64,000 nucleotides of DNA from a virus (IMGVR_UViG_3300037851_000503:2767-66766), one strand, 5' to 3'; shown: positions 7,863 through 56,957, counted from the stretch's first letter. Notes: generated from the letters alone by a model not told the origin. Numbers and translations: made by a program.

Positions 7863-7888
7863 CAAGAGGTTTGGTTATCCTATCCTAA

Positions 7889-7960: not shown

Positions 7961-8031
7961 AGACGATCTAGGGGAGACTTGAACTCTTTCGTAGAGGGGC
8001 CAGCAAATAGGACGATGGCACTCCCATTTAG

Positions 8032-8214: not shown

Positions 8215-8537
8215 TTAGGTAGATACTCTACTAAAAGATTCTCAGGACTCATCATCTCCTCAACTATCTCTTCAAGAGTCCTATTCATGCGCCTTCTAAC
8301 AACCTGCGCCCTACACCAGTTCTGAAACTCCTTAGTGTTAGCCATTCTCTGCCAAGCTGCCCTCTTATTCTGGATCTGGTGACGATGTTCTCTACTCTCT
8401 CCTCTAGCTCCGGAAGGATGATGGATGATCCTAACCCCACTCTCAGTCTTGTTCTGATGCTGTCCTCCCTTTCCTCCACTGCGAAAGGTCTGGACCTTGC
8501 AATCCTTAATTGTAACGCTGAAGACTAGATGTTTCAT
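8211..8537 (-). CDS. ArfB/ICT1-like peptidyl-tRNA hydrolase (class-I release-factor GGQ domain)
   Basis: SGGKGGQHQNKTESGVRIIHHPSG is the canonical RF-1/ArfB GGQ catalytic motif with the following VR(I/L)TH..G; basic tail; 108 aa. Confidence 0.7.
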   Translation of the reverse strand: MKHLVFSVTIKDCKVQTFRSGGKGGQHQNKTESGVRIIHHPSGARGESREHRHQIQNKRAAWQRMANTKEFQNWCRAQVVRRRMNRTLEEIVEEMMSPENLLVEYLPK

Positions 8538-8649
8538 AAATCAAAATAGGGGAATGCTCATCACTAGAACATTCCCCACGGCGGATAATAATTATTGAAG
8601 GCTAAGCGTAAAAGGATTTCGTTATTTGCCTTACCACTTAGGCTAACCC

Positions 8650-8745
8650 TCCACAAGAAAGCGGAGGGTCTAGGATTCGAACCTAGAGTCTCGGTTTTGG
8701 AGACCGAAGCATGTAATCTCTTTACTGGCCTTCAAATTTAAAATA
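8650..8745 (-). ncRNA. tRNA-like element: CCA-anticodon-like hairpin + canonical T arm + closed acceptor-like hairpin; atypical 5' half
   Basis: Minus-strand reading: TCGGT-CTCCAAA-ACCGA, then CTAGG-TTCGAAT-CCTAG, then the ACCCTCC-gctttcttgt-GGAGGGT hairpin. No canonical 5' acceptor strand or D arm was found by eye. Confidence 0.3.
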
Positions 8746-9149
8746 ACGATAGTGGCATAGCTTAAAGGGAGTTTTGGCTGTCCAGCCCCAGCAACACATC
8801 CATCAGATATGCTCCTGGCGGGTTGGACATGTAGTCTCTTCAATGGCCACTAAACTTGGCCCGAAGGGTAGGGCGTGCACGTACACCACTACGGATAAAT
8901 TGCGGATCTGCGAGTCGCACGCAGCGCAGTGGGCTTATGAGGCCCTCTTGGGCACTGACCCATCCGCAACAAATAATGATGATCGCTAAGCTCAAAGGGC
9001 TATGACCGCTTTGCTACCCCGGCATCAGATAGTCTCCCTCACTAACCTATCTTCCTCCATCACAAGTTAATAGACACAGAAAGGAAGACCATCTGGAGCC
9101 GGGGGCTGGAGTTGAACCAGCGTTGATGGCGATCAATCTCATTAGGTAC

Positions 9150-9220
9150 TCCTCAACCAGGACTCGAACCTGGGACATCTACGTTAACAGCGTAGCGCTC
9201 TACCAACTGAGCTATTGAGG
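9150..9220 (-). tRNA. tRNA-Asn (anticodon GTT)
   Basis: CCTCAAT-AGCTCAGTTGGTAGAGC-GCTACGCTGTTAACGTAG-ATGTC-CCAGGTTCGAGTCCTGG-TTGAGGA: perfect cloverleaf. Confidence 0.8.
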
Positions 9221-9244
9221 AATACAGAAGCTAAGCGACAAGGG

Positions 9245-11204: not shown

Positions 11205-11262
11205 CTTGCGAGTAACATAAAGTAACATAAGAGTAACATCCGAGTAACTTGATGTTACTTTG
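11205..11262 (+). promoter_or_regulatory. Cluster of 4 phased AGTAACAT motifs (+1 inverted copy) upstream of capsid gene
   Basis: gAGTAACATaaAGTAACATaagAGTAACATccgAGTAACTtgATGTTACT, spacing 10-11 bp. Confidence 0.5.
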
Positions 11263-17807: not shown

Positions 17808-18041
17808 ATGAGGCTTTTTCATAACGTGGATAACAATAGTGATACGACGGGATGGGGAGCGGTAGGTGTGCTTTTGGCGCTATTGTTGACGCCTGACATT
17901 TTCGCGCAGGCGATAGTAGTCATTCTATTTCCTGCGGTTGGATGGACCATTCTCTATTTTATAAAGAGGGAGTTAATCTATAGGTTCCCTCCTAAGATTA
18001 ACCCTAAGGAACTTAAAGATAAAGACGATCTTACTTCATAA
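17808..18041 (+). CDS. Small membrane protein (one or two TM helices)
   Basis: GAVGVLLALLLTPDIFAQAIVVILFPAVGWTILYFI hydrophobic stretch. Confidence 0.3.
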   Translation: MRLFHNVDNNSDTTGWGAVGVLLALLLTPDIFAQAIVVILFPAVGWTILYFIKRELIYRFPPKINPKELKDKDDLTS

Positions 18042-18112
18042 GTAACATAAAGTAACACATATGTTACTTTTGAGTAACATAGGAGTAACATAGAGTAACT
18101 TAGCAGGGGGCC
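18040..18112 (+). promoter_or_regulatory. AGTAACAT motif cluster
   Basis: taAGTAACATaaAGTAACAcatATGTTACTtttgAGTAACATaggAGTAACATagAGTAACTtag. Confidence 0.45.
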
Positions 18113-18115
18113 TTT

Positions 18116-19516
18116 ATGTTACTCCTATTTTTATATATGCCTTACACTCAGTATACATTCGGAGATATGAAACAGCGCCTAGCGAATGAGCTAGGAGACT
18201 CAGGGAAAGTGTTCTTCACTGATCACGAGCTTGGAAGATATATAATCGAAGCTTTGCATTGGTGGGGACTTTCCACCATGTACTTCAGAGAGACAGGCAA
18301 GATCGATACTGTCGCCAATCAGAGTTTCTACTATATAGAGAATAGTCTATCTAACGGCGCGGGGACCAGTCTTCTTCAAAGCCTCTCCATTACTGATCGA
18401 GAACTCATCAATGATATCAACTACTTCATTATGGAGAATCAGATCTCATCCTGGGCGGGAGGATGGATAGGAACAGAGATGTTCTCCTTACAGGAAATAT
18501 CCTCCATCTTATCCGACTCCAGGGATGAGTTCCTTAAGCTGACTGCCATGATAGCTGAAGGATACGATGTCCCCACTAATGACCAGAGAGTGGAACTTCC
18601 CGCCGATCACATCCGAATTCTAAGAGGAGAGGTCACCCCATCCGGGTCTGCCGGTCCTCTTCCTATCTGGGCGGTTGATCAGGTGGAACTCTATACTACT
18701 TTTAGGGAGACGAGCTTTCCTGAAGCTAGAAGACCTAAAGCCTATACAGTTAGTTATTCTCCTCAGTTGACAGTGGATATCTGGCCCGCGCCTAACGTTC
18801 CTACTCTTGTCGGCATTCAAGGGATAAAGAGCGGAGCCAGCTTAGACCCTCAGTCATCCGCCACTATTTTAAAGATCCCGGATGACGCTTCATTCCTTCT
18901 TAAGTATAGAACCATAGCGGATCTTCTGTCAGGAGACGGTTTAGCTCGCTGCCCTCAGATAGCTCAATACTGTGAGATGCGCTACATGGATGGACTCGAA
19001 GCGGCCAGCAGATATCTTTCAGTCCTATGGCAAAACGATGGGGGGCCGAGAGGGCAAATAACCTCTACTGCTCAATGGGATCAGGTAAGACCGACCTGGA
19101 GATATACTCCGACTGGCCAGCCTAGAACGGTGGCTCAGCTTAACTGGAATACTTTGGCCGTAAGACCTCTTCCAGATGATGAATATACTTTAACTTTCGA
19201 GTCTATTAGAAAGGCTCCTATTCCAACTGCGGACGGAGATTTTATCCAGGTGGGTCGAGAATCGATCCAGGCTATATATGACTATGCTCAACATATAGCT
19301 CTTATTAAGTCTCAAGGTCTGGAGTTTGAAGTAACCATGCAAAGGTATGAGAGCGCCAAGATGATGGCTGAAGAGTATCGTCAACAGGTGGCATCTCAGA
19401 GCTATCTCTATCAATCGACTCAACTTCCTTCTCTACAGGAGAAATGGTTTAGACCTTTGAGAAAGAAGATTCCAGTTCAGGCTTCGGCTGAAGACAGGCA
19501 ATTAGTGGAGGAGTAA
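18116..19516 (+). CDS. Hypothetical structural protein
   Basis: 466 aa; RBS aggggg; motif cluster upstream. Confidence 0.4.
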   Translation: MLLLFLYMPYTQYTFGDMKQRLANELGDSGKVFFTDHELGRYIIEALHWWGLSTMYFRETGKIDTVANQSFYYIENSLSNGAGTSLLQSLSITDRELINDINYFIMENQISSWAGGWIGTEMFSLQEISSILSDSRDEFLKLTAMIAEGYDVPTNDQRVELPADHIRILRGEVTPSGSAGPLPIWAVDQVELYTTFRETSFPEARRPKAYTVSYSPQLTVDIWPAPNVPTLVGIQGIKSGASLDPQSSATILKIPDDASFLLKYRTIADLLSGDGLARCPQIAQYCEMRYMDGLEAASRYLSVLWQNDGGPRGQITSTAQWDQVRPTWRYTPTGQPRTVAQLNWNTLAVRPLPDDEYTLTFESIRKAPIPTADGDFIQVGRESIQAIYDYAQHIALIKSQGLEFEVTMQRYESAKMMAEEYRQQVASQSYLYQSTQLPSLQEKWFRPLRKKIPVQASAEDRQLVEE

Positions 19517-27670: not shown

Positions 27671-30600
27671 ATGGATGAGATGATTTGGGTCAATCCTGAT
27701 GAAGTGGAGGTTGAGGTTCAGCCTACGACTCCTTCTCGTCCAAAGAAAAAGACTCCTCCAACAATTCCCACTAAACCCGTAGGAGATTCTTCTTTATCCC
27801 TAGTTCCATTCGTAACTCCTGAGAGCCTAGTAAAATCAGCTATCTCAGCGTCCCCGCCTCCTAAGCAACCTGAGCGTATTAGGGAGAGACGTAAAGAGAC
27901 TGAGATCATTCAGGACCTTGCCTCCACTGGAAAGATAAGTCAGGAAGAGAAAAGTAGACTGGTTCAGCCTAAGAGAATAACTGGCCGTCCTCTTCAAAGG
28001 GAGGAGCCGGATGTTACCGATATTGCTATCGAGGTAGGAAGAGGATTAGGTAGGACCATAGGTACTACTGCTACTGAGATTCCCAGAGGAGTGGGAGCTA
28101 CTTTAGATTTGCTGAGTGGATTAGCATATCCAGGACAGGAATTCAAGACTGAACGTTACTTGGGGAAACTATCTGACATTGGGACTAAGGCTGTTGAGGA
28201 AGCTACTCCTCTTGATCCTCAGTTTGATCAGAGCTTTCTAGTTAGAGATATCCCTTCCGCCTTTGGATCTGCTGTTACTTTCCTGGCTGGAGGAATGGTA
28301 GGTAAGGCTCTTAAGGTTCCCTCTCTTCTCTCAACGGCGGGTTTGGGTGGAGTGATCAATGTTGCTGAGGTAGCTAAGGAAGCAGACACGATGGGGATCG
28401 ATCCCTCTCGTAGGAAGCTTGCCGTCGCTGCTGCCCTTGGAAGTGGAATAACCGAAGCCGCTGGATTGGGAAGAGCCCTTGATAAGTTTGGACTAAAGCA
28501 GCCGTTCACTAGAAGGATGATAGAGATAGCTGAAGAGGGAGGACAGGAAGCGCTTCAACAGTGGCTTAATAATCTCAATGCTATCTTTGTTGGAGGTTAT
28601 GATCAGGATAGAGATAGCCTTGAAGGAGTGCTAAAGGGCGCTATCCTTGGAGGAGTAGTCGGCGGCGGATTCCAAGGACTATCATTGGCGAAGGAAACTA
28701 AGGATAGACTTGTCAGTAGACGACAGGAGAAGGAAACTCCCACTGAAGAGGTAGGAGTTCCTAGACCTCGGGCACCTCAAGCTATTGACCAACTTATTCT
28801 AAATGAGAGTAAGACTCTGGAGGATAATAAAGCTAGACTTAAGAATGCCACTGCTGCGGGTCTTCAACCTGAGGTAGAAAGGCTCAAGGGTCTTGTTGAG
28901 AGAAGTAAGAAAGTCATAACTGATTATTATTCTGCTTCTGAAATATCCGATCAACTATCTAACACCTATGAGTTCTTCCCTTCTCAGAAAGAAGGGCAGA
29001 GTCCTTACTTGGTTATTCCCAACTGGATGGCTGCGGCTATAAGTAATCCTGGTCAGACAATGGGATCCCGTGGAGTCACGGTTAATCCTCAGAATATTGA
29101 GGAAGTCAAGGCAGATATTATTAAGTATGCTCCATCCCTTGAGTATGGTAACAGTGCTATAGCAGCCTTGGATGAAGCTATGGCCAGGGCTAATCAGCAA
29201 GCTCTCTCCACCGTTGCCCTGGTCAATAGGGATGGTATTCTAATCGGACTTGGAAAGGAGACTCCTTCTCATGAGACTTTACACGTTGGACAGTATACTG
29301 CCGCGTTAGCAGGTAATAAGGAGATTACCTCTCTTCATTCTCCCGATTGGGCTACCAACAATCCTTATATCAGGAGGATGCTCGATACAGCCGAGCGCAC
29401 ATTTGTTGAGCCCATACTGGTTCCTGAAATCAGAGATGAGGATTTACTGGCAGTAGAACTACCTGCTTATATTATGAGCGGTCACTCTACTAAGTTCTTT
29501 GATTCTACCGGAGAAGCCATCGACTTTGTGATGGCTTACTTTGAGAATGTGCTGAAGACAAGTGGAGTTGATGCACTCAATACTATCGATAAGTCTACTC
29601 TCCTCATTCCTGAAAGAGAGGATATTATTCCTCTAGTTAGGAGTATGTATGAAACCTGGATCAGGGAAAAGATCGATGATGGAACTCTCAAATTTGAACA
29701 AGGATATAGGCTCCTTAAATCTCTCACTCCTCGCTCGAACGTTGCGAGAGTTGCTCCAAGCGGGCCTTCCCAGGGACCAAGCTCTGTTACAGGTCAGGGA
29801 ACTGGCGGAACTGTTGGAAATCAAGAGCAGGCTCCAGTCTCAAGAGATCTCAGAGACTACAATCTAGATAGATTTCTTGAAGGTTCGTCGGTTAGCTTTC
29901 CTGTTTATCATGGAACTAACGCAAATGTTGACTTTGATACCTTCTCTAAATCAGGAGATCTAGGCTTTCACTTTGGTACGGAGGAAGCAGCTAATAGAAG
30001 ATTGGAGAATACCGCTAAGTCGATTGATCCTACTCTCTATCCTTTAGGAGAGCCAAGATCTGAGTTGGATGCTACCTATGGACCGGATGCCAGAGTTGGA
30101 TCTTACTATCTCAGCCTTAAGAATCCTCTTAAGGTGCCTGACATCTTTCTTACTTTAGAGACTGCTGTAAAGTACCTTGCGGATAATGGCTATATAAAGC
30201 TGACTCCAGAGCTTGCGCAGGATGTCTTCTCCTTTAGCACGTTTAATAGGCAGGATGAATCTAGAAAGAAGATTCAAGATGAGGTTTATAGACAGTTAGA
30301 AGCTAAGGGTTATGATGGGTTTGAATATGTAAATGACGTTGAAGGAACCGATAAATCTACTTCATACGTCGTATTTCGACCTAACCAAATCAAATCCGCT
30401 ATAGGGAATGTTGGAACCTTCGATTCCTCAGAGAAGAGTTTCATGAAGGCCGAGCACCTAAGTCGATATGAATCTGAGGCTAGAAGAATGGCCAAAGAGA
30501 ATGGCCTCGACTGGAATCAAATGGCCTCGTACGATAAGGCCACCTATATTGATGAAGCTAGAAAGATATATGAAAGAGGAAGAGAGGAAGCTCCAGAGTT

Positions 30601-33600
30601 CCAGCAGTTATCCGAGGAGGAATACGCCAGGAGAGAACGAGAGGCACTAGAGAACATCAAACCAAGGGGGATGATGGCCCAATGGCCTGAAGAGATAAAA
30701 GTCGGTGATACCGTTAAGGTCAAGGGATATGCGAATCAGGCAGAGGTAATCAGAATCGACCCGGATGGACGGGCTAATGTTAAGTTCCCGGATGGAACTG
30801 AAGATAAGTTTAAAGTATCCGATTTATATCCTGTTACTTCTAAAGTACCTCAAGCTACTCCGTCTGTTACTACTCCTAGTGTACCTCAAAGTACCTCAGG
30901 AGTAACATCAAGTACCCCAGGAGTAACACCTCCTCTTAGTAATGTTAGTCAACCTAAACCTTATGTCCCTCCTAAGAAAGGAGTCGTTCCTTCTCTTCCA
31001 GGCAGGATGAGGATCAAGAAGACCCCAATGTGGGTTGATAGGATAGGTCCGGGAGACACGCCAGGAACAGTTAAGGTTCAGTTTGGGGATGGCACTACGT
31101 CTCAGTTTGACTTAGAGGATGTTAGGGATGCAAGTGGTAAGAAGATCAAAGATCCTCTAGTTTATATGTTGGTGGAAGATCCACCTTCTAATCCTACTCC
31201 TCCACCTCCAAAGCCTCCTTATCGGTCTTATCCTGCGGGAGGACCTTATCCTTCGTTGATGGTCGAAGGAGTTAATGTTGCATTCCAGCGACCGATCTCC
31301 AGAAGGTTCAGTGACCTGCTTGAGAATAACAACATTAACTATGACTTCTCTAAACCTCCAGCCCTTCAAGTCTATGAGGCATTGATCGAAGGAACTGTCA
31401 GGGATGAGGATGTGGAGAATGTTCTTAATGACGAAGGAGTAAGTTGGGAAGACTTTGCCGAGGATATCTATAGTACCTATTCCAGAGCGGGAGCTACCCT
31501 TCAAACTCTATCTGATATTGTTCAACGTCATTGGGTTAGATTGAAAAACGAGAACCTTGCCCTGTTTAACAAGCTCGTCTCTCCATCAAGACAGATCAAT
31601 ATGGTCCTAGAGGATCTCAATAAGACTGTCTTAGGGATGAGCCTTTGGCGCAGGTCAGGAAGACTTCTTCAGAAAGCTACCCTCACTCAGTATGCTACTG
31701 CTATGGTTAACTTCATGGGAGCTACAGGTAGAGTTCCTCTGGACGCAACAGCAGCAGGACTGGGACAGATGGTCCAGGGAATGGTAGAAGGGAAAGGAAA
31801 GTTTGCACAGAGAACAGCTAAAGCTAGAGATTCCGCTTATGAAACTTTCCTGGCAGGCTTCGAAGCTTGGAGAGCCCTTAATCCTACGCAACTTCAAGAC
31901 CTCTTTGCAGGTAGGTTAGGAAGTAACTACGAAGGATATGAGACTATTCTGGTTGAGATAAAGAAGTACTTCCCGGATATTTATCAGAGACTATTTTCCA
32001 TTCCAATGGAGGTGGATACTAAGGAGTTGAAGGATGCCGACAATCAGATCAAGGGAATGAACACGCTGCTCAATAAGATTGAAAGTAGAAGTACTAGGAA
32101 GGATCTTCAACAGCGGATAGCTAAGTTACGTAGCAAGGTTAATCAAGAGAACTCCGTCTTGATGAGGGTTGGAATGAGAGGTCCTGAGGCATTCTTCGAT
32201 TTCTTTCTCAAGCCCATGCAATTCGGGGAGTTCCTGATGCGTCGTCCTCAGTTCATCTCTCGGTTAAGACTAGAGCTTAAGGATAGAGGAATAGATATGA
32301 ACCAGATCTTGAGAAATACTCATCTCCCTCCTGATCAACTAGCTTCTCTTCCTCCAGATCAGAGGATGACCTTTGCGGGTATACCTGCGGATGCCCTTAA
32401 GGCAGCCCTTGATAGCGCTCTTGAATTTACGATGGCTCTCGATCCAAGTCGGGGACCTGACGCCAGATTAACCGAGATCGTAGGACAGAATGTAATCAAG
32501 ACGATAAACGCTCTAGGACCTCTATCGTTATTGACTGATTTAATGTTCCCACGAGCTATCTTCAGTGCGGCTAAAACTTTCTATGACTACTCTTCTCTTC
32601 CTTTCATGTTTGAGTGGGCACAGGAAGGATCATTTAGAAGAATATCTAATCAGATCTTTGGAAAAGGACTAGCTACTGATCCTAAGACTGGAGAGAAGTA
32701 CCTTAACTATCCTCCTTCGAGAGCAGACTATGAACGTCTGGGAAGAGCCTTTAGTGGTACGTTCCTTTATGCCGTTGCCTTCGCGCTACTGAAGTATGGG
32801 TTGATGGGAGATGAATGGTATGAACTTAAGACTGGCAGAAAGGATAGGGATGGTAAGCCGATTTACGATGATATTCGAAAGTTCGTTCCTTTCGCTAAGA
32901 TCTTTCAACTCGTTAGTTTGGTAGATAGGTTTGCCAACAACAGGATGAATGATATTCAGGCGGGCGCTGAGTTACTTGATATTGTTACAGGTATGAAGCG
33001 CTACGGGAATGATCAAGATCTAATCGATATGATCGATGCTGTCGCTGAATATTGGAGCGGCCCCGAGCGTAATCCGTTTACGATTGATAAAGTTAATCAG
33101 TTGGTAGGAAAGTATCCTGCGGCATTCCTCACTCCTTTCCTTAACCTGAGGAGCATCGTTGCTGCCTACGATGAAGATGAAAATGTTAGGAAGGATCTAA
33201 GAGGATATGGATTCTGGGGACCTTCAATGGACAAAATTCCATGGCTGAGGCGGCAACTTCCCGATCTTACCTATCCTACCTTTAAAGGTAAGATGGAACT
33301 ATCGCAAGATCCTCTCCTTCAACAGTTTGCGGGAGTCTCCTTAATAGAAGCCCCGATCTTCATGGGAAGGGAATTCAAGAGGATGGGAATAAATATTAGA
33401 GAATATCTTCCTAAGGATTCCGATCCGGCTATCGATAGACTTCAGAATAAGATATTCTCTTATCTGATGGAGTCCGAAGGAAAGCTGTTAGAGAAAGATC
33501 CTGAGTACAGGAATGCTTCTGATGCAATTAAGGCAGCTATGTGGGAGAATTTGATGATGGGTCCAGGAGGAATAGTCTCCTTAGCTAGACAAGGAGCGCT

Positions 33601-33718
33601 TGATGCTAATCCCATGGAAGCTGCTAGACGGCGACTAATGAAAGAAATGCCTGGAAGATTCATGAGACAGGCGACTGGACTTGCTGAGGAGCTTGAACAA
33701 ATGAGAAAGGTAAGGTAA
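27671..33718 (+). CDS. Giant multidomain virion protein (tape-measure or internal ejection protein candidate), 2015 aa
   Basis: Largest ORF, lies between tail genes and lysozyme. Contains tandem small beta-domain repeats (KVGDTVKVKGYANQAEVIRIDPDGRANVKF.../ VDRIGPGDTPGTVKVQFGDGTTSQFDLEDV) and proline-rich linkers. Confidence 0.45.
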   Translation: MDEMIWVNPDEVEVEVQPTTPSRPKKKTPPTIPTKPVGDSSLSLVPFVTPESLVKSAISASPPPKQPERIRERRKETEIIQDLASTGKISQEEKSRLVQPKRITGRPLQREEPDVTDIAIEVGRGLGRTIGTTATEIPRGVGATLDLLSGLAYPGQEFKTERYLGKLSDIGTKAVEEATPLDPQFDQSFLVRDIPSAFGSAVTFLAGGMVGKALKVPSLLSTAGLGGVINVAEVAKEADTMGIDPSRRKLAVAAALGSGITEAAGLGRALDKFGLKQPFTRRMIEIAEEGGQEALQQWLNNLNAIFVGGYDQDRDSLEGVLKGAILGGVVGGGFQGLSLAKETKDRLVSRRQEKETPTEEVGVPRPRAPQAIDQLILNESKTLEDNKARLKNATAAGLQPEVERLKGLVERSKKVITDYYSASEISDQLSNTYEFFPSQKEGQSPYLVIPNWMAAAISNPGQTMGSRGVTVNPQNIEEVKADIIKYAPSLEYGNSAIAALDEAMARANQQALSTVALVNRDGILIGLGKETPSHETLHVGQYTAALAGNKEITSLHSPDWATNNPYIRRMLDTAERTFVEPILVPEIRDEDLLAVELPAYIMSGHSTKFFDSTGEAIDFVMAYFENVLKTSGVDALNTIDKSTLLIPEREDIIPLVRSMYETWIREKIDDGTLKFEQGYRLLKSLTPRSNVARVAPSGPSQGPSSVTGQGTGGTVGNQEQAPVSRDLRDYNLDRFLEGSSVSFPVYHGTNANVDFDTFSKSGDLGFHFGTEEAANRRLENTAKSIDPTLYPLGEPRSELDATYGPDARVGSYYLSLKNPLKVPDIFLTLETAVKYLADNGYIKLTPELAQDVFSFSTFNRQDESRKKIQDEVYRQLEAKGYDGFEYVNDVEGTDKSTSYVVFRPNQIKSAIGNVGTFDSSEKSFMKAEHLSRYESEARRMAKENGLDWNQMASYDKATYIDEARKIYERGREEAPEFQQLSEEEYARREREALENIKPRGMMAQWPEEIKVGDTVKVKGYANQAEVIRIDPDGRANVKFPDGTEDKFKVSDLYPVTSKVPQATPSVTTPSVPQSTSGVTSSTPGVTPPLSNVSQPKPYVPPKKGVVPSLPGRMRIKKTPMWVDRIGPGDTPGTVKVQFGDGTTSQFDLEDVRDASGKKIKDPLVYMLVEDPPSNPTPPPPKPPYRSYPAGGPYPSLMVEGVNVAFQRPISRRFSDLLENNNINYDFSKPPALQVYEALIEGTVRDEDVENVLNDEGVSWEDFAEDIYSTYSRAGATLQTLSDIVQRHWVRLKNENLALFNKLVSPSRQINMVLEDLNKTVLGMSLWRRSGRLLQKATLTQYATAMVNFMGATGRVPLDATAAGLGQMVQGMVEGKGKFAQRTAKARDSAYETFLAGFEAWRALNPTQLQDLFAGRLGSNYEGYETILVEIKKYFPDIYQRLFSIPMEVDTKELKDADNQIKGMNTLLNKIESRSTRKDLQQRIAKLRSKVNQENSVLMRVGMRGPEAFFDFFLKPMQFGEFLMRRPQFISRLRLELKDRGIDMNQILRNTHLPPDQLASLPPDQRMTFAGIPADALKAALDSALEFTMALDPSRGPDARLTEIVGQNVIKTINALGPLSLLTDLMFPRAIFSAAKTFYDYSSLPFMFEWAQEGSFRRISNQIFGKGLATDPKTGEKYLNYPPSRADYERLGRAFSGTFLYAVAFALLKYGLMGDEWYELKTGRKDRDGKPIYDDIRKFVPFAKIFQLVSLVDRFANNRMNDIQAGAELLDIVTGMKRYGNDQDLIDMIDAVAEYWSGPERNPFTIDKVNQLVGKYPAAFLTPFLNLRSIVAAYDEDENVRKDLRGYGFWGPSMDKIPWLRRQLPDLTYPTFKGKMELSQDPLLQQFAGVSLIEAPIFMGREFKRMGINIREYLPKDSDPAIDRLQNKIFSYLMESEGKLLEKDPEYRNASDAIKAAMWENLMMGPGGIVSLARQGALDANPMEAARRRLMKEMPGRFMRQATGLAEELEQMRKVR

Positions 33719-34942: not shown

Positions 34943-37861
34943 TTATAGCTGCACCTCCTTCATAGATCCCATGTCATGGCCAATTGAAGCATCAACTCCA
35001 CAAATAAAACCTCCAGGACAGAGAGTAGGATTAGCCAACTCCATCACAGGAAGCTGAAGAATCCTGCTAACATTCTCTAGGCACTCGTCGGCAAGCTCAA
35101 TCGGAGGATGGAAGACCATTGCATCGTGAGGAAATAGAACCAACTCATACCTATTAGTATAGTCCAGGTCGGCTAGATCTCTCAGCATCTTTCTAAACAT
35201 TCCATGAGCATGATTGGCGGGAAGGAAGGCTAACGCCTTTTCCGCATCCTCACCTCTTGCCCTATACCACTCCCCCCTTTTGTTCTTTCTTCTGGCCCAT
35301 ACATGCCAGAACCATCGCCGCGCTCCCCAGACAGATTGAAGATATGGAGTCTTTCCCCTACCTATATCCAGAGACTCTAAAAGATTCTCCTGCCATGCGA
35401 ATGTCTTGGGATAGATTCTCTTAAGAAGGAAGAGAAGTTGTTCCGCCTGAGCCTCAGACTCAAAGTACTCCTCGTTCTCAAAGTACAACCGGCGAGCGCT
35501 TTGGCCGAAGTTAGTACCGTGGTTAAGAGGCTTAGCCTGCTCATCTCTTACCTTTTTGTACTTGCTCTTTATCTCCAAGAGATATTGCTTAAGATCGTAA
35601 TCGCTCATCTCAAGCGCTTTCTCGATCCCAGGATACTTTACCAACCATCCCGCGACATAACTATGGGGATCTAACTTTGCCGTCCGCCACTTCCTGTCGT
35701 CATTCGCCAGGGAAGCAGTCGTTAGATCATGGAAGGCTTTATAATCGAACTCGATCAGGAGATGCCCAGGCTCAGCGGCCACACATCTCCTAAATCCTTG
35801 AGCCAGATCTCCTCTCCGCTTGGGAAGCGCGAAGACGTTAGCTCCTCCTTTAGAAGAGTATTGCCATGTGGAATTAGTCTTAGCTACTACTCTCAATCTC
35901 CCGTCTATGCCGGGAACCCATCCTCCTTTAGCTGTCCCATCCTCCTTAATCTTCCCTGTATAGGAGTCTCTCATTTTCTCTATCGCCCGGATATCCCTGG
36001 ACAAGGCAATAATAGGATCTCCCGTCTCGGCTTGAAGCCTCTTCATTAACTTGTCGCCGGTCGTTTCCTTCCCTTCCTTAAAGGTCTTAGGAACCTCATA
36101 ATCCCGATACTTAATGTACCTTATCATCTGATCGGACGATCTAGGATTAAAGGGGATATGGCGATATAACCTGCTACCGTCTTCTGTTACTCTTAAATCT
36201 GGAAAGGTACTCAAGACTAACTCAAGAGTACCTTCCAGAGTACCATCGAGTAACATACGATAGATGTCAGTTACTTTGATTAGGTTCTTCTTAGTGCCCG
36301 TACCACGTTTATTAGGTACAGGATCAAATAGGTCAGGATGTCTAGCATAGACGAACTCTTTTATTTCTTCGGGAAGATTCGAGAATCCATCCTTGGTTGG
36401 TCCTCGTTGGTTGAGTTCGGGAGGAATGAGCGTGGAGATCTCGCTGAATTTTCCCTCCACACTGGAAGTTAATTCCTCCCGAAACTTATCCAGTCTTTCC
36501 TTATTGACTGGAACTCCTCTCTTTTCCCAGGGAACTTCGACCTTCTCCCTTACTTCCCTAATATATCTTTCGTATCCATCCCACATCCCTAGTCTATCTA
36601 GGTCAAGAGGAAGCTTTGCGCAAATGCGCACTAGAGCGCAGACATCTGCTACCCCATAAAGGACATCGTTCGTCCCCGCCAAATGTTTCCATGGCCACGT
36701 CCAGCCATAGTCTCCAGCTAGTTGCTGAAGATTTCCCAACAGATCTGATTGTAAGGCTCGCCGCATGGAGAGGGAGTCATAGATTGTGCCTCGTACTATT
36801 GCCCCCTCCCTCTCCAAGTGCGGGAGATCGAAGTGATCTCCATTGTGGAAGACCTTAGGATTCGGCAGCGCTAAAATCTTAAACGCTAGTTCTCTGATCT
36901 TGGGGTCTTTCCATTCTCCATAGACTCCCCAGGTATCGGAGATGGCGAATTGGATAGAAAGTATGGAAGATTGTCCAGGTATGGCATCAATAGGGTCATG
37001 TCCGCCCTTGTCACAGGCTTGCTCAACGTCTGCGGATTCTCCGTCGCCTCCTTCATCCATTCCTCCCAGGTCACCGTCTCTTCCAAGTTCGATAAGCTCA
37101 TCCTCAATTCCTTCCTTTGAATAAGGTGTCTCAATGTCCGAGGCAATCCAAACCTCAGGATCTTCGCTAGCCTCTTTATATAGACGCTCTAGGGCAGCGA
37201 CTCCTTCCAACGCTTCTATCTCGGTCGAAGGGTCGATAACATATGTTAGGCGTCCCGCAGCGGCAGATCTAGCTGCATTGAGATCTTTGATGAGGAGTCC
37301 AAGGTACTTGGTGTTTCCTCTGATGATGAACGCTGGGTGGAAGCTTGGAATTGTGACGATCCCATTTGGGCCAGGAAGTGGATAACCTCGTATGTAAGTA
37401 ATGGAGCGCTTGCCTCCATGGAATCCAGTAAGCTCTCTAATAGAGATCGAGCCGAGAGAAAGAATTGCTCTTGGCTTAAGTTCTTCGATAGCTCGATTGA
37501 GATATTGACGACAATGGTCGATTGCTTCTCTTTCATATTCGGCTCCAGCTAGTACATTATTTGGAGGACGACACCTTAAGATGTTAGTAATCCAGAAGTC
37601 GTCTCTCTTCATCCCTCCAAGATCTATGGCTTTCTGGAGAATAGACCCGGCCTGAGCGTGAGGACGGAACGGAAGCGCTTCCAAGTCTTCTTCCTTCCCA
37701 CTAGCTTCTCCTATGATCATTACCCCAGAATAACCGTTACCCTCGATACGGGTAAACTTGGTTCCACTTGTACATCCTCTCTCATGAAGAGGGCAACCTT
37801 TACATTCAGGTTTGAGAAAATTAACTCCCATCCAACTCCTCCCTATAGGAGAATTCTCCAT
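34943..37861 (-). CDS. Family-A DNA polymerase with N-terminal family-4 uracil-DNA-glycosylase-like domain and 3'-5' exonuclease domain
   Basis: UDG4-like: Cys cluster CKGCPLHERGC, IIGEASGKEED...PFRPHAQAGSIL, HPAFIIR. Exonuclease: SDIETPY, HNGDHFDLPHL, YGVADV. PolA motif A LIEFDYKAFH, motif B KPLNHGTNFGQSARRL, motif C LFPHDAMVFH. Confidence 0.75.
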   Translation of the reverse strand: MENSPIGRSWMGVNFLKPECKGCPLHERGCTSGTKFTRIEGNGYSGVMIIGEASGKEEDLEALPFRPHAQAGSILQKAIDLGGMKRDDFWITNILRCRPPNNVLAGAEYEREAIDHCRQYLNRAIEELKPRAILSLGSISIRELTGFHGGKRSITYIRGYPLPGPNGIVTIPSFHPAFIIRGNTKYLGLLIKDLNAARSAAAGRLTYVIDPSTEIEALEGVAALERLYKEASEDPEVWIASDIETPYSKEGIEDELIELGRDGDLGGMDEGGDGESADVEQACDKGGHDPIDAIPGQSSILSIQFAISDTWGVYGEWKDPKIRELAFKILALPNPKVFHNGDHFDLPHLEREGAIVRGTIYDSLSMRRALQSDLLGNLQQLAGDYGWTWPWKHLAGTNDVLYGVADVCALVRICAKLPLDLDRLGMWDGYERYIREVREKVEVPWEKRGVPVNKERLDKFREELTSSVEGKFSEISTLIPPELNQRGPTKDGFSNLPEEIKEFVYARHPDLFDPVPNKRGTGTKKNLIKVTDIYRMLLDGTLEGTLELVLSTFPDLRVTEDGSRLYRHIPFNPRSSDQMIRYIKYRDYEVPKTFKEGKETTGDKLMKRLQAETGDPIIALSRDIRAIEKMRDSYTGKIKEDGTAKGGWVPGIDGRLRVVAKTNSTWQYSSKGGANVFALPKRRGDLAQGFRRCVAAEPGHLLIEFDYKAFHDLTTASLANDDRKWRTAKLDPHSYVAGWLVKYPGIEKALEMSDYDLKQYLLEIKSKYKKVRDEQAKPLNHGTNFGQSARRLYFENEEYFESEAQAEQLLFLLKRIYPKTFAWQENLLESLDIGRGKTPYLQSVWGARRWFWHVWARRKNKRGEWYRARGEDAEKALAFLPANHAHGMFRKMLRDLADLDYTNRYELVLFPHDAMVFHPPIELADECLENVSRILQLPVMELANPTLCPGGFICGVDASIGHDMGSMKEVQL

Positions 37862-52454: not shown

Positions 52455-52545
52455 TTATTCATGGCTACTCCTGAGAGTAACATACAGATAACTGGATGTT
52501 ACTTTATGTTATCCATATGTTACTCTTATGTTACTTGTTAGACAT
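52455..52545 (-). promoter_or_regulatory. Motif cluster (5 copies) between JAB gene and downstream operon
   Basis: gagAGTAACATacagataactggATGTTACTttatgttatccatATGTTACTcttATGTTACTtgttag. Confidence 0.45.
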
Positions 52546-52546
52546 C

Positions 52547-53380
52547 TTAGACATCGTAGTCGCAGGGATTGCGATATTCCCGGAAGATCTCCTCATATTC
52601 CTTCTGAGTGAGTCTTGAAGACTTGCCGATGAGGGACTTGACGGGCTGGACGATCTCAGGCGGGGGCAGATGTTGCGGGATTGAAACCCTATCGACTCCG
52701 AAGACCGCCGAGCGATACAAAGCCTTGGCTTCTCTCACTCCGCAACTTCCGATTCTAGTCGCCATATACTTGGTTCCTCCCTTCTCCTCGCTCCATTCCC
52801 CGCAGTCGCCGAGGCTGGCCGCCGATTGACCCCTGGTTTGAGGCATCACCGGACGGGTAATAAAGGGCCAGTCTTCGACGCCTATTGGAACGACCTTGAA
52901 CTGGGCGACTCCCAGCCCGCCGCACGGCAGGTTGAATCGCCCTTCGGCTTGATAGGCGAAGCCGAGGAGAGCGAACTCTCCCATCTGAGGATGAGCGCCG
53001 TCGATCTTTGAGGAGAGGACAATCGAAGAAGGGAAGCGCTGGTTGAGGCCGTTCTTCCCTGTGTCGATGGACGAGAAGAAGGCTCCCATCGTGTGATGAG
53101 AGTGGACGACCCCGACCAGATTATCCGTGACGAACGGAGGAAGAGGTTCCTCAGTCGAACAAGCTCCGTGGCTTCTCTTCTGGCGGCGGGGAACGTAGAC
53201 CTCCTCGATAGTGACGTGAAGACCTTCCTCAGTTCGCTCGCCCAATAGTACTGCGAGCCATTCATCCGGTTCATGAACCGCCCCGGCGAACATTGCCAGG
53301 ATGTCAGGATCTATTTCCATCCTGCCGATGGAGCCGGTTGCAATCGGACACTTATGAACGACTGGAATATCAAACGACAT
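52547..53380 (-). CDS. JAB/MPN (JAMM) metalloprotease, deubiquitinase-like
   Basis: Complete JAMM signature: upstream Glu (GERTEEG) and HSHHTMGAFFSSID = HxH-x7-S-x2-D. Start set at the ATG after RBS GGAGG, a few bp from the E1 stop. Confidence 0.7.
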   Translation of the reverse strand: MSFDIPVVHKCPIATGSIGRMEIDPDILAMFAGAVHEPDEWLAVLLGERTEEGLHVTIEEVYVPRRQKRSHGACSTEEPLPPFVTDNLVGVVHSHHTMGAFFSSIDTGKNGLNQRFPSSIVLSSKIDGAHPQMGEFALLGFAYQAEGRFNLPCGGLGVAQFKVVPIGVEDWPFITRPVMPQTRGQSAASLGDCGEWSEEKGGTKYMATRIGSCGVREAKALYRSAVFGVDRVSIPQHLPPPEIVQPVKSLIGKSSRLTQKEYEEIFREYRNPCDYDV

Positions 53381-53987
53381 TTGAAACCTCCTCGGGAACG
53401 GGAATAGTGAACTGGAGTTCCAGGCACTTCCCCACATACAAATAGTAGTCGACGGCGCTGGCTCCAACTCCAGCAGCCATCATGGCATGGCCGATGTGGG
53501 GCAGCTTGCCATAGCCTCCTTCTCCCGCCGCCCCTTCGGCAAAGAGAGGAGGGCCGGGAGAAACGGTGACGATCCCTAGACCGTCATAGGAGACGCGAAT
53601 GTAACTCGCCCCCGCAGCCATGGCTGCATCGAAGATCGCAACTCGTTTTGTAAGTGACATATCAGTTGCGTCCACGACTAGGGTCTGCTTCCAGGTTTCC
53701 TGGTTTCCATTTCCGAAGTCTTCAGGAAGGAAGAACTTCTCATGAACGTGGGGAAGGGGATCTCCCATTGACCACGATACCATGGTCTTAAGAAGACTGA
53801 CCTTCGTTGAGTTATCCTTTAAGGGTTTCGGAAGTCTTCTGAATCCATCTCCTCCCTCAAAGGTATCAGGATCATAGACAGTAATCGCAACCTGTTGCCC
53901 TCTCATCATCCGGCAGAGGGCGATTGCCAGCCAGTAGCCGACACCTCCCGCGCCGAGGATGAGGATCTGTTTAAACTTAGGATTCAT
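53370..53987 (-). CDS. E1-like (ThiF/MoeB-family) activating-enzyme adenylation domain
   Basis: ILILGAGGVGYWLAIAL Rossmann GxGxxG; VYDPDTFEGGDGFRRL and LVVDATDMSLTKRVAIFDAAMAAGASYIRVS parallel the ThiF blocks D.D.V..SNL.RQ and DLV.DCTDN...R...N; 205 aa. Confidence 0.6.
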   Translation of the reverse strand: MNPKFKQILILGAGGVGYWLAIALCRMMRGQQVAITVYDPDTFEGGDGFRRLPKPLKDNSTKVSLLKTMVSWSMGDPLPHVHEKFFLPEDFGNGNQETWKQTLVVDATDMSLTKRVAIFDAAMAAGASYIRVSYDGLGIVTVSPGPPLFAEGAAGEGGYGKLPHIGHAMMAAGVGASAVDYYLYVGKCLELQFTIPVPEEVSNVV

Positions 53988-53999
53988 TTAGTTCTCCTT

Positions 54000-54833
54000 T
54001 TACTCAGTAGGATTAGGATAGGGATTGCAATCTGAACAGTAACCTCTAACTAGATAGTCAGTAGGGATTAAGTAATTGCAACCTCGGCACTCTCTCGCGT
54101 GATAGGTTGTGCATGGTGAGCACCAGACCTTGGATGCGATACTGTATCGCGATCTTACTCTGGAGGTGTAGGGGGTAATCTCATGCTCGTGACATCTATC
54201 GCATTGGGTGCTGGACATCTCAAAGCATTTTTGACACCTTCCGCGCATCCGCTTCCAGTTGGGCTCGTGGAACTCCCTGACATCGAAGCACTGATTACAT
54301 CTAGTTATCTTGGCATGGTCAAGGCACTCATTAGAACACACCCTGGAGCTATCCCTTAACAGGGTAGTAAAGTTAAGTGCTGAAGACTCGGGCGCGGTGT
54401 CCTGACAGATTGGACACCTAAAATGCCTCAGGTTAGGACACTTATGCCCGATATATTTGTTGAACCAGATCTCCGTATTGTAATAGTGAGATCCGGGAGC
54501 AATCCCAAGGAATAGAGCTTCGACCAGGGTCTTACTGTTCCCTAGACAAACTCTCCCTCCTCGTGGATGAGAAATGTGAGGATGACCCTGATGGGGCTTG
54601 GCGATGGGAAGACTTGTCTTAATGTCCCAGATGTTGATGACTTCTTTTCCTGCTTCATCTATCATCCAGATTCTATTTGTCTGGATCATTTGCTGACAAT
54701 GGGGGCATCTGGCGGAAGGATCGATCAGAATCCTGATTCCCTCTCTAGCTCTCCATGTGAGATTCTCCTTGCCAGTCTTGTGGGAAGACACAGCTTCAGC
54801 AAAGGAAAGCAGAAACTCTCTCTCATTCATCTT
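54000..54833 (-). CDS. E2-like (UBC-fold) protein fused to a C-terminal multi-zinc-finger (RING-like?) region
   Basis: HPHISHPRGGRVCLGNS resembles the UBC HPN...G.ICL active-site block. The C-terminal 150 aa carry >20 Cys/His in CxxC pairs. Start set at ATG 54833 (RBS AGGAAGGAG), overlapping the upstream stop. Confidence 0.5.
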   Translation of the reverse strand, partial: KMNEREFLLSFAEAVSSHKTGKENLTWRAREGIRILIDPSARCPHCQQMIQTNRIWMIDEAGKEVINIWDIKTSLPIAKPHQGHPHISHPRGGRVCLGNSKTLVEALFLGIAPGSHYYNTEIWFNKYIGHKCPNLRHFRCPICQDTAPESSALNFTTLLRDSSRVCSNECLDHAKITRCNQCFDVREFHEPNWKRMRGRCQKCFEMSSTQCDRCHEHEITPYTSRVRSRYSIASKVWCSPCTTYHARECRGCNYLIPTDYLVRGYCSDCNPYPNPTE

Positions 54834-55446
54834 CATCTCCTTCCTGGCCGGTGAGATTCTCCTCCTCCTCCTCCTCCTCTCCTGTCTCCAGGTCAACAAT
54901 CACCCAGGCTTCATCTCCTTCGTCTACCTCCACTTCCTCTCCAGTCGGGGACCTCCACGTTACTCTCGGTCCCTCCTCGCCATTCTCGTCCTTTACCATC
55001 TTGAACTTAACGGCGATTGTCTTGCTACTTACGTTCATTGCCAGACTGTGAACGGGAGATCCACTACCGGTTTCGACCGCATACGTCTGTTGGATAGGAT
55101 GGAACACTTCAGCGATGAGCTTTGCTCCAAGGTCGAAGATCGACTTCTTGACTTCAGGATCATGTGCGATCCCGAAGAATCTAGCGACTGCCGCGAGAGC
55201 GCCAGGAACCCAGAGAGGCATCGGCTGGGACGGATCATGGCCGAAATACAGTTCGCTGGCATATCTGCCCCAGGGACTCTGGGCTCTAATTACCAGGGGC
55301 GTCCCCTTGTCCTGATCCCATAACAGGCAATAGTAGCCGGGCCACCGTGCCGGTCTGTTCTGAGCCACATAAATAATAAAATTCTTGACGTTCTGAACCA
55401 TCCCCCGGTCCATTTTGGACGGATCGATAAAAGGTACGAGATGCAT
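54823..55446 (-). CDS. First gene of E2-E1-JAB operon; acidic C-terminal tail
   Basis: 207 aa; C-terminal half KTIAVKFKMVKDENGEEGPRVTWRSPTGEEVEVDEGDEAWVIVDLETG then EEEEEE tail; promoter-like motif cluster upstream. Confidence 0.4.
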   Translation of the reverse strand: MHLVPFIDPSKMDRGMVQNVKNFIIYVAQNRPARWPGYYCLLWDQDKGTPLVIRAQSPWGRYASELYFGHDPSQPMPLWVPGALAAVARFFGIAHDPEVKKSIFDLGAKLIAEVFHPIQQTYAVETGSGSPVHSLAMNVSSKTIAVKFKMVKDENGEEGPRVTWRSPTGEEVEVDEGDEAWVIVDLETGEEEEEEENLTGQEGDEDE

Positions 55447-55529
55447 AGTTCTCCTTTGACTGTTGGTTGAAAGATGAAGTAGAAAGACAAAGTAGAAAGA
55501 GTACCTTAAAGTACTTAAAAGGAGTAACT

Positions 55530-55625
55530 ACTCTGAGGTATCGTGTTACTTTTATGTTACTCTATGTTACTTTAAGGTACTCAAGAGTAACCTAGATGTT
55601 ACTCCAGGTTACTCTTAGCCGCCGG
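55530..55625 (-). promoter_or_regulatory. Motif cluster upstream of the E2-E1-JAB operon
   Basis: ggAGTAACTactctgaggtatcgtGTTACTtttATGTTACTctATGTTACTttaaggtactcaagAGTAACctagATGTTACTccagGTTACTctt. Confidence 0.45.
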
Positions 55626-55639
55626 TCTGCGATCACATA

Positions 55640-55951
55640 TTAGATCCCCGCCTGGGCCTGATGAACAGGGCGGATCGTCTCTCCCTGGTAGGGGCGATCC
55701 TGACCATCAGTGCTCTTGAGAACCGACGAAGCTTCGGAGGTGACGATCTCCGTCTTTCCGTCCGCCCCGATTACTTCGACCATCGAAGCCGACTGAGAGC
55801 CGGACTCCCTGAGGACTTCACGGATCTTGCCCAGGAGGGTGATCGTGTCGCCGTTGGACTGAAAGGAGACTTTGTTGAACTCACCTCGGGTGACTTCAAC
55901 GCTCGATTTGTATTCAACGTTACCTTCAAATTTGACGTTCCTGATTGACAT
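55640..55951 (-). CDS. Small beta-rich protein (ubiquitin-like beta-grasp candidate, speculative)
   Basis: 103 aa, alternating hydrophobic beta pattern (MVEVIGADGKTEIV); sits just upstream of the E2-E1-JAB operon promoter. Confidence 0.3.
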   Translation of the reverse strand: MSIRNVKFEGNVEYKSSVEVTRGEFNKVSFQSNGDTITLLGKIREVLRESGSQSASMVEVIGADGKTEIVTSEASSVLKSTDGQDRPYQGETIRPVHQAQAGI

Positions 55952-56150
55952 AATAGGATTATCCTTTCTTTCTTAGCTAAGTTAGGGTTAGAGTTTTAGG
56001 AGTTTGTCGAACTCCTCGTTAAGTTCCTTCCTTCTCCGATCATTCAGCACTTTCAACTTAAAGCTGAGATACCTCCCTAAGTAGTAAGCGCCGACCAGAC
56101 CGGAGGGAAGGAGGAAAATGAGAATAGAGATAATGGCCAGCTTAATCATC

Positions 56151-56957
56151 TTATTGTTTTAAATGCAACTGTGGCGTCCCCTCGACAATCGTCAAGGAGC
56201 CTTGATGTTTAGCTATGCCGTCAGACTTCGCTCGCTGGATCTCAAGCTCCAACCTGAGCTTCTCCAGGGTGAGGAGGGCAGGATTGGCATATGTCTGCGC
56301 CTCAACCTGCTTTTTCTCTGCCTCGACTCGTGCCCTTGCCAGATCTGCCTCCGCTGCCTCTTTCGCCTTTTGATTGGCGACCACCGCCGCCGCCGCGTTT
56401 TCGATCTGATCCGGCAGGTCAGGACGACCGACGATCTGGATGGATTCAAGTTTGAGCCACATTTGTTGCCGGAGGATAGGTACTAGGGCCTCAAAGATCT
56501 TCTTTTGAATGTTCTCCTGGTTAGATAGAAGCTCATAGGCTTGGTACTCGGCGATTGCGTTCTTGGCCTCGGTGTTCACTCTCGCGTGAAGAAGGGGCTC
56601 AAGGCGGGACTTCCTATCCTCAGGAGTGAGGCCGAACTTCGTGACAAACGCCTTAATATCCTCATCGGACTGAGGCGGATCGATTGTAACCTGGATCTGC
56701 ATGCCGACCTGGGCATTGTCCTTCGTGGAGCCTTGAACGCCTTCGCTGAGAGAGAAGGTCTTGGCGTCGTACTCGAAGGTACTTATGGTCGGGCTGATGG
56801 TGGAAACAAACCCATCGCTGGGTTTGATGACCTGTTTGATCCCCGTACTATCGGTGACGATGACCCTCGTTCCAACGGAGGCGCTGGAACAGGCAAGGGA
56901 CAGGATAGTGAGGATGAGGGTTATAACGAACAATAATGTTCTTTTCGTAGTGGACAT
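56151..56957 (-). CDS. SPFH/band-7 (HflC/stomatin-like) lipoprotein
   Basis: Lipobox LSLAC after a signal peptide; SPFH-like core and C-terminal Ala/Glu-rich helix AAAAVVANQKAKEAAEADLARARVEAEKKQ. Confidence 0.55.
   Translation of the reverse strand: MSTTKRTLLFVITLILTILSLACSSASVGTRVIVTDSTGIKQVIKPSDGFVSTISPTISTFEYDAKTFSLSEGVQGSTKDNAQVGMQIQVTIDPPQSDEDIKAFVTKFGLTPEDRKSRLEPLLHARVNTEAKNAIAEYQAYELLSNQENIQKKIFEALVPILRQQMWLKLESIQIVGRPDLPDQIENAAAAVVANQKAKEAAEADLARARVEAEKKQVEAQTYANPALLTLEKLRLELEIQRAKSDGIAKHQGSLTIVEGTPQLHLKQ

Follow-up and report, generated by a model that had tools for sequence, protein, structure and literature searches.

Does a phage encode a complete ubiquitin-type conjugation pathway of its own? 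The question is raised by five genes located between positions 52547 and 55951 of a 64,000-nucleotide viral sequence (IMGVR_UViG_3300037851_000503:2767-66766), which makes up most of a phage genome of ~66.8 kb and is referred to here, in its full length, as the window. In the direction of transcription, the genes encode a 103-amino-acid (aa) candidate ubiquitin-like protein (Ubl; 55640-55951), a 207-aa protein that we call X (54823-55446), a 276-aa E2-like protein (54000-54830, with the end as given by the gene call), a 205-aa E1-like adenylation enzyme (53370-53987), and a 277-aa JAB/JAMM metallopeptidase (52547-53380). A sequence-only reading of the window had earlier assigned the last three genes to a Ubl transfer cascade on the basis of short motifs; all of these motifs were present in the genes to which they had been assigned, and they were invariant across homologs. 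We think it probable, if not strongly so, that the five genes constitute a phage-borne ubiquitin-like protein conjugation system.

The assignment of the 53370-53987 product to a minimal ThiF/E1 adenylation domain, made from its sequence, holds. The ThiF-like fold proposed by the sequence-only reading was borne out by Pfam ThiF, by the family profile against PDB, by hhalign, and by the matches of E1 proteins from a second group of viral loci (the sister branch, described below). By itself, the window E1 matched Pfam ThiF with an E value of 6.6e-5 (22.6 bits, below the gathering score of 28.1), and its best matches in PADLOC were the Cap2 E1-E2 models (1.4e-4), which were matched in their E1 part only. 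A search of 5.8 billion proteins recovered 22 relatives (39 to 53% identical), many of them encoded on contigs of 26 to 71 kb. The family profile matched TcdA (1.9e-5), Cap2 (6e-5), and ThiF (5e-3) in PDB, as well as Uba4, MccB, and MoeB. With hhalign, the family was aligned to Escherichia coli ThiF over 126 columns with a probability of 91%, and its VVD106-A-T-D109-M block was placed on VLDCTDN of ThiF. Sister-branch E1 matched Pfam ThiF at 1.4e-24 (87 bits).

The Rossmann-type GxGxxG motif and the ribose-binding acidic residue that mark ThiF/MoeB/E1 enzymes were both present. Invariant or nearly so in an alignment of 23 homologs were G12-A-G14-G15-V-G17, D39/D41, R51, K62, VVD106-A-T-D109-M, R131, and Y159, with R51 and K62, which are of the phosphate-contacting Arg/Lys type, invariant in all 23 of these window-branch E1s. 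Across 53 distinct E1s from both branches, GxGGxG, D39/D41, K62, D106-x-T-D109, and Y159 were conserved at 96 to 100%. The enzyme is unusually small, and neither a rhodanese domain nor a CxxC zinc motif nor a CYS domain was found in its 205 aa. Outside the D[CA]TD motif, there was no conserved Cys column in the 53 E1s; the phage E1 thus lacks the catalytic Cys of canonical thioester-forming E1s for ubiquitin and Ubls. Tyr159 was conserved in 100% of the 53 E1s and is located in the loop after the last core strand. Judged by this position, Tyr159 is presumably the crossover-loop residue, the profile alignments ending before it.

The call of a JAB/JAMM metallopeptidase at 52547-53380 likewise holds on sequence grounds. 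The full JAMM set, Glu40 and H93-S-H95-x7-S103-x2-D106, was invariant in 8 homologs. The window protein matched Prok-JAB at an E value of 4e-5 (23.9 bits; gathering score, 25), whereas its relatives exceeded the threshold: several homologs had firm PF14464 matches, and the sister-branch JAB matched Prok-JAB with 28.3 bits, above the gathering score. Against PDB, the top matches of the family profile were weak (E values of 0.014 to 0.9), and all of them were MPN/AMSH/Rpn11/CSN5 entries. Toward its C terminus, the protein also has a conserved domain of ~150 aa in which three Cys residues (C153, C193, and C213) are invariant.

A conserved order of small protein, X, E2-like protein, E1, and JAB was seen on the contigs of the E1 homologs. 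A scan of IMG/VR with the JAB alignment yielded 54 viral loci, and in nearly all of them an E1 gene was placed immediately upstream of JAB by hidden Markov model (HMM) scans. The complete five-gene cassette was present on ~16 distinct contigs, the window included (related phage contigs of 35 to 71 kb). Because the same gene order recurs on ~16 distinct viral contigs, the cassette is far beyond chance. One locus (L009:6603-8251) has four genes between E1 and JAB, including those for an AAA+ ATPase (PF00004, weak nSTAND3) and a lipoprotein-like 85-aa protein. Another (L007/L011; IMGVR_UViG_3300033068_001013) is rearranged, with an extra 185-aa gene between the E2-like and E1 genes and the Ubl gene ~1.4 kb downstream of E1; no JAB was found in the 10.7 kb of sequence covered, and the locus abuts a contig end.

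The sister branch comprises ~45 other viral contigs of 6 to 236 kb (L027 to L073; e.g., L044:3759-8567 and L057:3662-8438). Their gene order is a T4-type clamp-loader large subunit (gp44-like; AAA+, Gp44 lid), Phage_clamp_A, a protein of ~250 aa, one of ~100 aa, one of ~300 aa, E1, and JAB. In this branch, then, a Ubl system has become fixed beside the genes of the replication clamp. The ~100-aa protein ends in ...FRVxLNGxEIxPxxAPxxxxxGxxxEIRPYDVAG, with YDVAG directly before the stop codon in 20 of the 37 distinct sequences and followed by 1 to 6 extra residues in most others. Its profile matched ~30 SUMO entries across the whole beta-grasp domain (best, 2e-4), and one member matched Pfam ThiS (1.5e-3). 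The ~300-aa protein has an invariant H-Y-H-x(1-7)-C-W-G motif and gave no signal in comparisons with PDB or UBC. Of the contextual arguments for a pathway of Ubl activation and transfer, the strongest is that a Gly-tailed small protein, an HxH...C protein, a Cys-less E1, and a JAB protein recur together in two branches.

Outside these viral contigs, few relatives were found. In 50,697 GenBank phage records searched by blastn and tblastn, the window DNA and its E1 had no match, and the sister E1 had only generic ThiF/MoeB matches. Cellular genomes were scanned with one E1 and one JAB motif pattern, using one genome per species (185,579 species), a procedure of low sensitivity. The E1 pattern found no relative in these species, and the JAB pattern found three, which had the viral gene order of the sister type and were all on contigs of metagenome-assembled genomes (Smithella, Woesearchaeota, and Thermoplasmata bins). 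In the literature searched, no description of a phage-encoded Ubl/E2-like/E1/JAB cassette was found, which is not proof of its absence.

The E2-like gene was always located between Ubl/X and E1. Its product consists of a Cys domain (residues 1 to 149; 54384-54830), containing CPxC (C42 and C45), H83-P-H85, C95-x-G97, and H129-x-C131, and a variable tail (54000-54383) whose 128 residues read as four CxxC...CxxC zinc-ribbon units. An earlier homology search with the N-terminal domain found no relatives; the family was recovered when residues 1 to 149 were searched exhaustively with HMMER, ~80 of the best 150 of 339 matches being genuine single-stretch relatives and the others of these 150 being WD40 proteins. 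In 81 family members, C42, C45, H83, P84, and C95 were invariant, and W26, P43, W55, H85, G97, H129, and C131 were nearly so. Matches of the profile to the WD40 proteins Tako8 (2e-9) and WDR5, and to many others in a library of 1.84 billion proteins, were rejected as artefacts of a repeatedly matched "VWDIKTG" strand motif. The corresponding "INIWDIKTS" strand (residues ~56 to 90), which draws strong but spurious multirepeat WD40 matches, is a trap for automated annotation. No fusion of the E2-like protein to Ubl, X, E1, or JAB was found among 150 family representatives.

The sequence-only reading had called this protein an E2 from its active-site-like block, H83-P-H85-ISHPRGGRV-C95-LG. That part of the call stands, as does the position before E1: an invariant Cys follows the HPH ten residues on, where UBC proteins have an HPN-type motif and a Cys 8 to 10 residues later. 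In hhalign comparisons with UBE2D2, UBE2N, UBE2I, and UBE2L3, 15 columns of HPH(I/V)..G.(I/V)C(L/M)G were aligned onto HPNI..G.ICLD with a probability of 20%. A UBC fold was not recognized, and no model in Pfam, PADLOC, NCBIfam, or PHROGs (including UQ_con, Prok-E2, Cap2, and Bil E2) matched the protein. An AlphaFold (AF2) model of the domain, built from the family alignment, had a pLDDT of 89.3 and a pTM of 0.74, and Foldseek searches of PDB and BFVD with this model returned no significant match. The predicted order of elements is alpha1, a beta-meander, HPH 83-85, Cys95, a helix at 102 to 108, and a helix at 119 to 127. In UBC domains, the order is alpha1, beta1-4, HPN 75-77, Cys85, alpha2, and alpha3. 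The modeled order thus parallels that of UBC, a resemblance and not a test. Plausibly, CPxC (at a hairpin) and H129-x-C131 form a structural zinc site, and HPH and C95 form the active site. Among homologs, the tail can be as short as one small Cys cluster of the CxxC type (L010) or exceed 200 aa; it had weak RING/LIM-like profile matches (E values of 0.04 to 2). The E2 call is therefore partly supported: a conserved Cys/zinc protein occupies the slot of an E2 and may act as a carrier or ligase, its membership in the UBC superfamily not being demonstrable.

Which protein would be the modifier? The sequence-only reading had offered two candidates, X and the 103-aa protein. For X, it had suggested a poly-Glu tail trimmed by the JAB protease. 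This candidate was rejected: homologs of X end in, for example, WIVMEI, WMIIQM, or WIKIELP, without Gly; the acidic tail is unique to X of this phage; and the X domain is internal to longer proteins in two phages. The 103-aa protein, which it had listed second, proved the better candidate by its presence at the loci and by its C termini. In each related locus, its HMM found a single copy adjacent to the cassette. The window protein ends in ...RPVHQAQAG-I (G102-I103-stop), and its homologs end in QAKAG-F, GGKG-F, SAKAG-L, SAGAG-LR, SAKAG-RG, SAKAG-AAGR, SAEGAK, or QGRAA. In 7 of these 9 family members, a Gly is located within 5 residues of the end and is followed by 1 to 4 residues; one further member (L010; SAEGAK) is ambiguous. 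A Gly tail of small residues with a short variable extension looks like the end of a Ubl precursor. From its position, size, and tail, the 103-aa protein encoded at 55640-55951 is most likely the Ubl.

In every window-type locus, the X gene directly precedes the E2-like gene. D96, A136, W164, G169, and W181 were invariant in X, and no match to it was found in Pfam, PHROG, PADLOC, or PDB. The X domain is fused into proteins of 352 to 644 aa in three loci (L007, L008, and L003) and is internal in those of L003 (644 aa) and L008 (431 aa). X is a conserved fifth component, perhaps an adaptor or target-recognition part.

All cassette genes are on the (-) strand. They belong to the arm that also holds the replication genes, the replication/early arm of a podovirus-like phage. 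When genes were called independently on a second assembly of this phage, X, E2-like protein, E1, and JAB had identical lengths. The overlap of stop and start codons that the sequence-only reading had described was confirmed at two of the three junctions, X/E2 (8 nt; 54823-54830) and E1/JAB (11 nt; 53370-53380); a gap of 12 nt lies between the E2-like and E1 genes. The window contains 48 copies of the octamer AGTAACAT, versus 1.4 expected. The octamer is mostly intergenic and in both orientations, in clusters of 2 to 5 copies spaced by ~10 to 11 bp (further examples at 11211-11259, 18041-18123, 44846-45109, and 61292-61640), and it resembles a promoter or operator motif used across the phage genome. 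A three-copy cluster (55554-55603, - strand) is located between the Ubl gene and the X-E2-E1-JAB unit, and a four-copy cluster (52476-52535) is just downstream of JAB. The four genes are therefore bracketed by promoter-like clusters, as had been proposed, and the 103-aa gene belongs to the preceding unit. The transcription unit of the Ubl gene also includes, directly before it, genes for a predicted membrane protein of 53 aa (55988-56149, - strand) and an SPFH/Band-7 lipoprotein (56151-56957, - strand; Pfam, 4.8e-15; phrog_200).

In the pathway that we envisage, the 103-aa protein would be made as a precursor ending in ...AG-I, and JAB would remove the residue or residues after Gly102. There is a precedent in BilC, a JAB protein that trims Ala98 after Gly97 of BilA (PMC10557695). 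E1, for which the fold and the ATP/Mg ligands are in evidence, would then adenylate the exposed Gly carboxylate as its presumed substrate. Because E1 has no conserved Cys, the acyl-adenylate would pass directly to Cys95 of the E2-like protein or reach it via Tyr159. The latter route would resemble that of Bub, where the E1 is likewise devoid of a catalytic Cys and an oxyester forms on an invariant Tyr of the crossover loop (PMC11601596). The HPH/Cys95 site would lie beside the presumed structural zinc site (CPxC and HxC), and the E2-like protein would move the modifier onto lysines of target proteins from the phage or the host. Target recognition, or an E3-like role, may fall to the zinc-ribbon tail together with X, and JAB may also reverse the conjugates. 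Since the cassette is located in the replication/early arm and is bracketed by the phage's own AGTAACAT repeats, it would serve the phage during infection and not be a bacterial defense system; a role in host takeover, in counter-defense, or in modification of the phage's own proteins may be supposed. The proposal in its most specific form is that tailed phages of uncultured hosts have their own complete Ubl machinery, with a minimal Cys-less E1 that works through a Tyr oxyester or directly from the adenylate and a hitherto unrecognized, structurally orphan class of E2-like Cys enzymes bearing E3-like zinc ribbons, and that they tag host or phage proteins with it in infection. This we regard as possible and on balance doubtful.

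Several observations weigh against a conjugation system. The identities of E1 and JAB are established, and everything downstream of them we infer. The E2-like profile had weak E2 matches in PDB (E values of 0.2 to 1) that covered the motif only, and H83, H85, and C95 could equally form a metal site. No beta-grasp similarity of the window-type Ubl was found in PDB, in Pfam, or with MoaD, ThiS, and CysO profiles. Its AF2 model, made from 2 sequences, was unreliable (pLDDT, 42), its order of beta-beta-alpha-beta-beta-beta-beta being compatible with a beta-grasp fold. The two N-terminal strands are missing from some Ubl homologs, and one homolog (L006; QGRAA) has no terminal Gly. Finally, no link between the window-type Ubl or E2-like protein and its counterpart in the sister branch was found by hhalign.

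The same proteins could be put together differently. If the small protein were a sulfur carrier of the ThiS/MoaD/CysO/QbsE type, it would be trimmed by JAB (as by Mec+ and QbsD), adenylated by E1, and converted to a thiocarboxylate, and the Cys of the E2-like protein would be a persulfide relay for thio-modification of tRNA, DNA, or a cofactor by the phage. The closest relatives of the E1 do include ThiF, MoeB, Uba4, and TcdA, and one sister Ubl matches ThiS, as noted above. Moreover, the "E2" cannot be shown to be one, and operons that combine JAB and E1 with ThiS/MoaD for sulfur transfer are well described among the operon classes of Iyer, Burroughs, and Aravind (rows 4a to 4e; PMC1779556). 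However, no rhodanese, cysteine desulfurase, PP-loop thiolase, or sulfur-acceptor enzyme was found in scans of the five cassette proteins (Pfam and NCBIfam) and ~two dozen other window proteins (Pfam or PHROG), and the E1 has neither a rhodanese fusion nor a conserved Cys. The sister Ubl profile prefers SUMO over ThiS/MoaD, and a variable multi-zinc-ribbon tail together with X would fit the recognition of macromolecular targets better. The lack of a sulfurtransferase or thiolase in these scans and the SUMO-like sister Ubl make us disfavor sulfur transfer, which we judge quite unlikely.

Also unlikely, in our estimate, is a system without an E2, in which E1 and JAB act on the Ubl and conjugation, if any, proceeds straight from the E1 adenylate or a Tyr intermediate to targets; the Cys/zinc protein would then not be a thioester carrier and might instead be a zinc adaptor, a regulator that binds DNA or protein, or some unrelated enzyme. 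In favor of this, the protein has an orphan fold without a UBC match and seven invariant or nearly invariant Cys and His residues that could form two metal sites, the zinc ribbons of its tail weakly resemble RING/LIM, and the sister branch has a protein without detectable homology to it in the same slot. Yet both branches independently keep H-x-H, 4 to 12 residues, and C-x-G in a protein encoded just upstream of E1, a UBC-like arrangement, and the E2-like gene is strictly coinherited with E1. CPxC and HxC, furthermore, already make up a complete four-ligand site, and HPH and C95 are therefore left free. Alternatively, the cassette might be a counter-defense decoy in which JAB, as a mimic of Cap3 or BilC, strips the conjugates of host Bil, CBASS, or Bub systems, E1 sequesters or misactivates host Ubls, and the phage "Ubl" is never conjugated. 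Host Ubl systems are indeed antiviral (PMC10097602; 10.1101/2023.09.04.556158; PMC10557695), and the E1 is weakly similar to the E1 domain of Cap2. But a deconjugase or decoy would not need the coevolving Gly-tailed small protein that is present in every genome, and JAB matches no PADLOC model of Bil or Cap3; we consider a decoy very improbable.

Taken as a conjugation system, the cassette resembles several known systems in part. Bil (BilABCD; row 6d, Iyer et al. 2006) has the same four separate genes, for a Ubl, an E2-like Cys protein, an E1, and a JAB deubiquitinase, and in both systems the Ubl is made with one residue beyond the reactive Gly, which in Bil is trimmed by JAB (PMC10557695). 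BilD, however, is a large E1 with inactive and active adenylation domains and a CYS domain carrying a catalytic Cys and a zinc site, whereas the phage E1 is a single 205-aa domain without such a Cys. BilB has a recognizable UBC fold with a CEHH motif; the E2-like protein of the phage has no recognizable one, and its HPH is upstream of the Cys. X and the zinc-ribbon tail are extra in the phage cassette, and PADLOC Bil models did not match the cassette proteins. Bil is host encoded, in a defense-island context, and targets phage tails; the present cassette is phage encoded.

With Bub (6E/DUF6527), the cassette shares an E1 without a catalytic Cys and with an invariant Tyr in the loop after the adenylation core (PMC11601596), a JAB protein associated with E1, and a Ubl with a C-terminal Gly. 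The E2 of Bub has a Ser-His pair and forms oxyesters, whereas the E2-like protein of the phage has an invariant Cys. JAB and E1 are fused in Bub (BubCD) and are separate and translationally coupled in the phage. Bub also has the DUF6527 serine protease BubE and a poly-Ubl, neither of which was detected here (for DUF6527, the cassette proteins were scanned). The likeness to type II CBASS lies in the E1, for which Cap2 was the second-best PDB match of the profile after TcdA, and in its pairing with a Cap3-like JAB. Unlike type II CBASS, the phage cassette has no E1-E2 fusion, CD-NTase substrate, or effector; consistent with the sequence-only reading, library scans found no CD-NTase or known effector in the window neighborhood or in the related loci. 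The phage cassette has a dedicated Ubl, whereas in CBASS the C terminus of the CD-NTase is the activated part.

Two viral precedents are more limited. TAPI (Ubl) and TAPK (JAB-NlpC/P60) of phages lambda and T1 are the only previously described phage-borne Ubl-JAB pairing (PMC1779556); they are without E1 and E2-like proteins and belong to the tail module, whereas the present cassette is in the replication/early arm. Asgard "Nidhogg" viruses encode E1-like ThiF genes for which a ubiquitin-type modification was proposed (10.1101/2021.07.29.454249). These are E1 homologs only, presumed to hijack host ubiquitin and E2, whereas the present virus has all of the components. On related contigs, a Ro60/TROVE+vWA protein (L010:2623-3945) or an RLIG1-type RNA ligase (L001/L002:2008-2571) is encoded a few genes before the cassette, and both kinds of genes are also reported for the Nidhogg viruses, which carry E1-like genes. 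These neighbors raised the possibility of an archaeal (Asgard) virus origin, which was rejected: a bacteriophage is favored because the window has a PolA-UDG protein, a P22-like portal, and an SU10 adaptor.

The remainder of the window agrees with this assignment and with the phage origin stated in the sequence-only reading, since it contains terminase, portal, tail, and DNA polymerase genes. The large terminase (67-2130) and the P22-like portal (3166-5289) are accompanied by an SU10-type adaptor and tail genes, and the DNA polymerase (34943-37861, - strand) consists of a UDG-superfamily domain (residues 44 to 185) fused to a family-A polymerase. The structural arm ends with an open reading frame of 2015 aa (27671-33718, + strand), which by its size, and with a podovirus-like portal and adaptor present, is reminiscent of giant proteins packaged in virions. 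Ten tRNA genes form two clusters, one for Phe, Gly, Arg, Pro, Met, and Asn (7544-9222) and one with three for Ile and one for His (58849-60186).

To our knowledge, prokaryotic ubiquitin-type conjugation has so far been characterized as a host weapon against phages (Bil, CBASS, and Bub), and phages have been known to carry at most a Ubl and a JAB protein for tail assembly or, as in Asgard viruses, isolated E1 genes. New here are the phage-borne setting, the minimal Cys-less E1, the orphan-fold E2-like protein with zinc ribbons, and the extra component X. In the sister branch, where the cassette directly follows the clamp loader, the sliding clamp or the replisome might be what it modifies, in a prokaryotic-virus analog of the SUMO and ubiquitin modification of PCNA. 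The cassette or its sister form, carried by ~16 close and ~45 more distant viral contigs, is widely distributed among uncultured phages. If our reading is true, this self-contained cassette would mean that prokaryotic viruses, like eukaryotic viruses, also wield protein tagging, and Bub-type Cys-less chemistry would extend beyond bacteria. The minimal 205-aa E1 and a possibly new E2-like fold are offered for mechanistic study, and the cassette would open a directly testable way into a new class of mechanisms for host takeover or counter-defense by phages.

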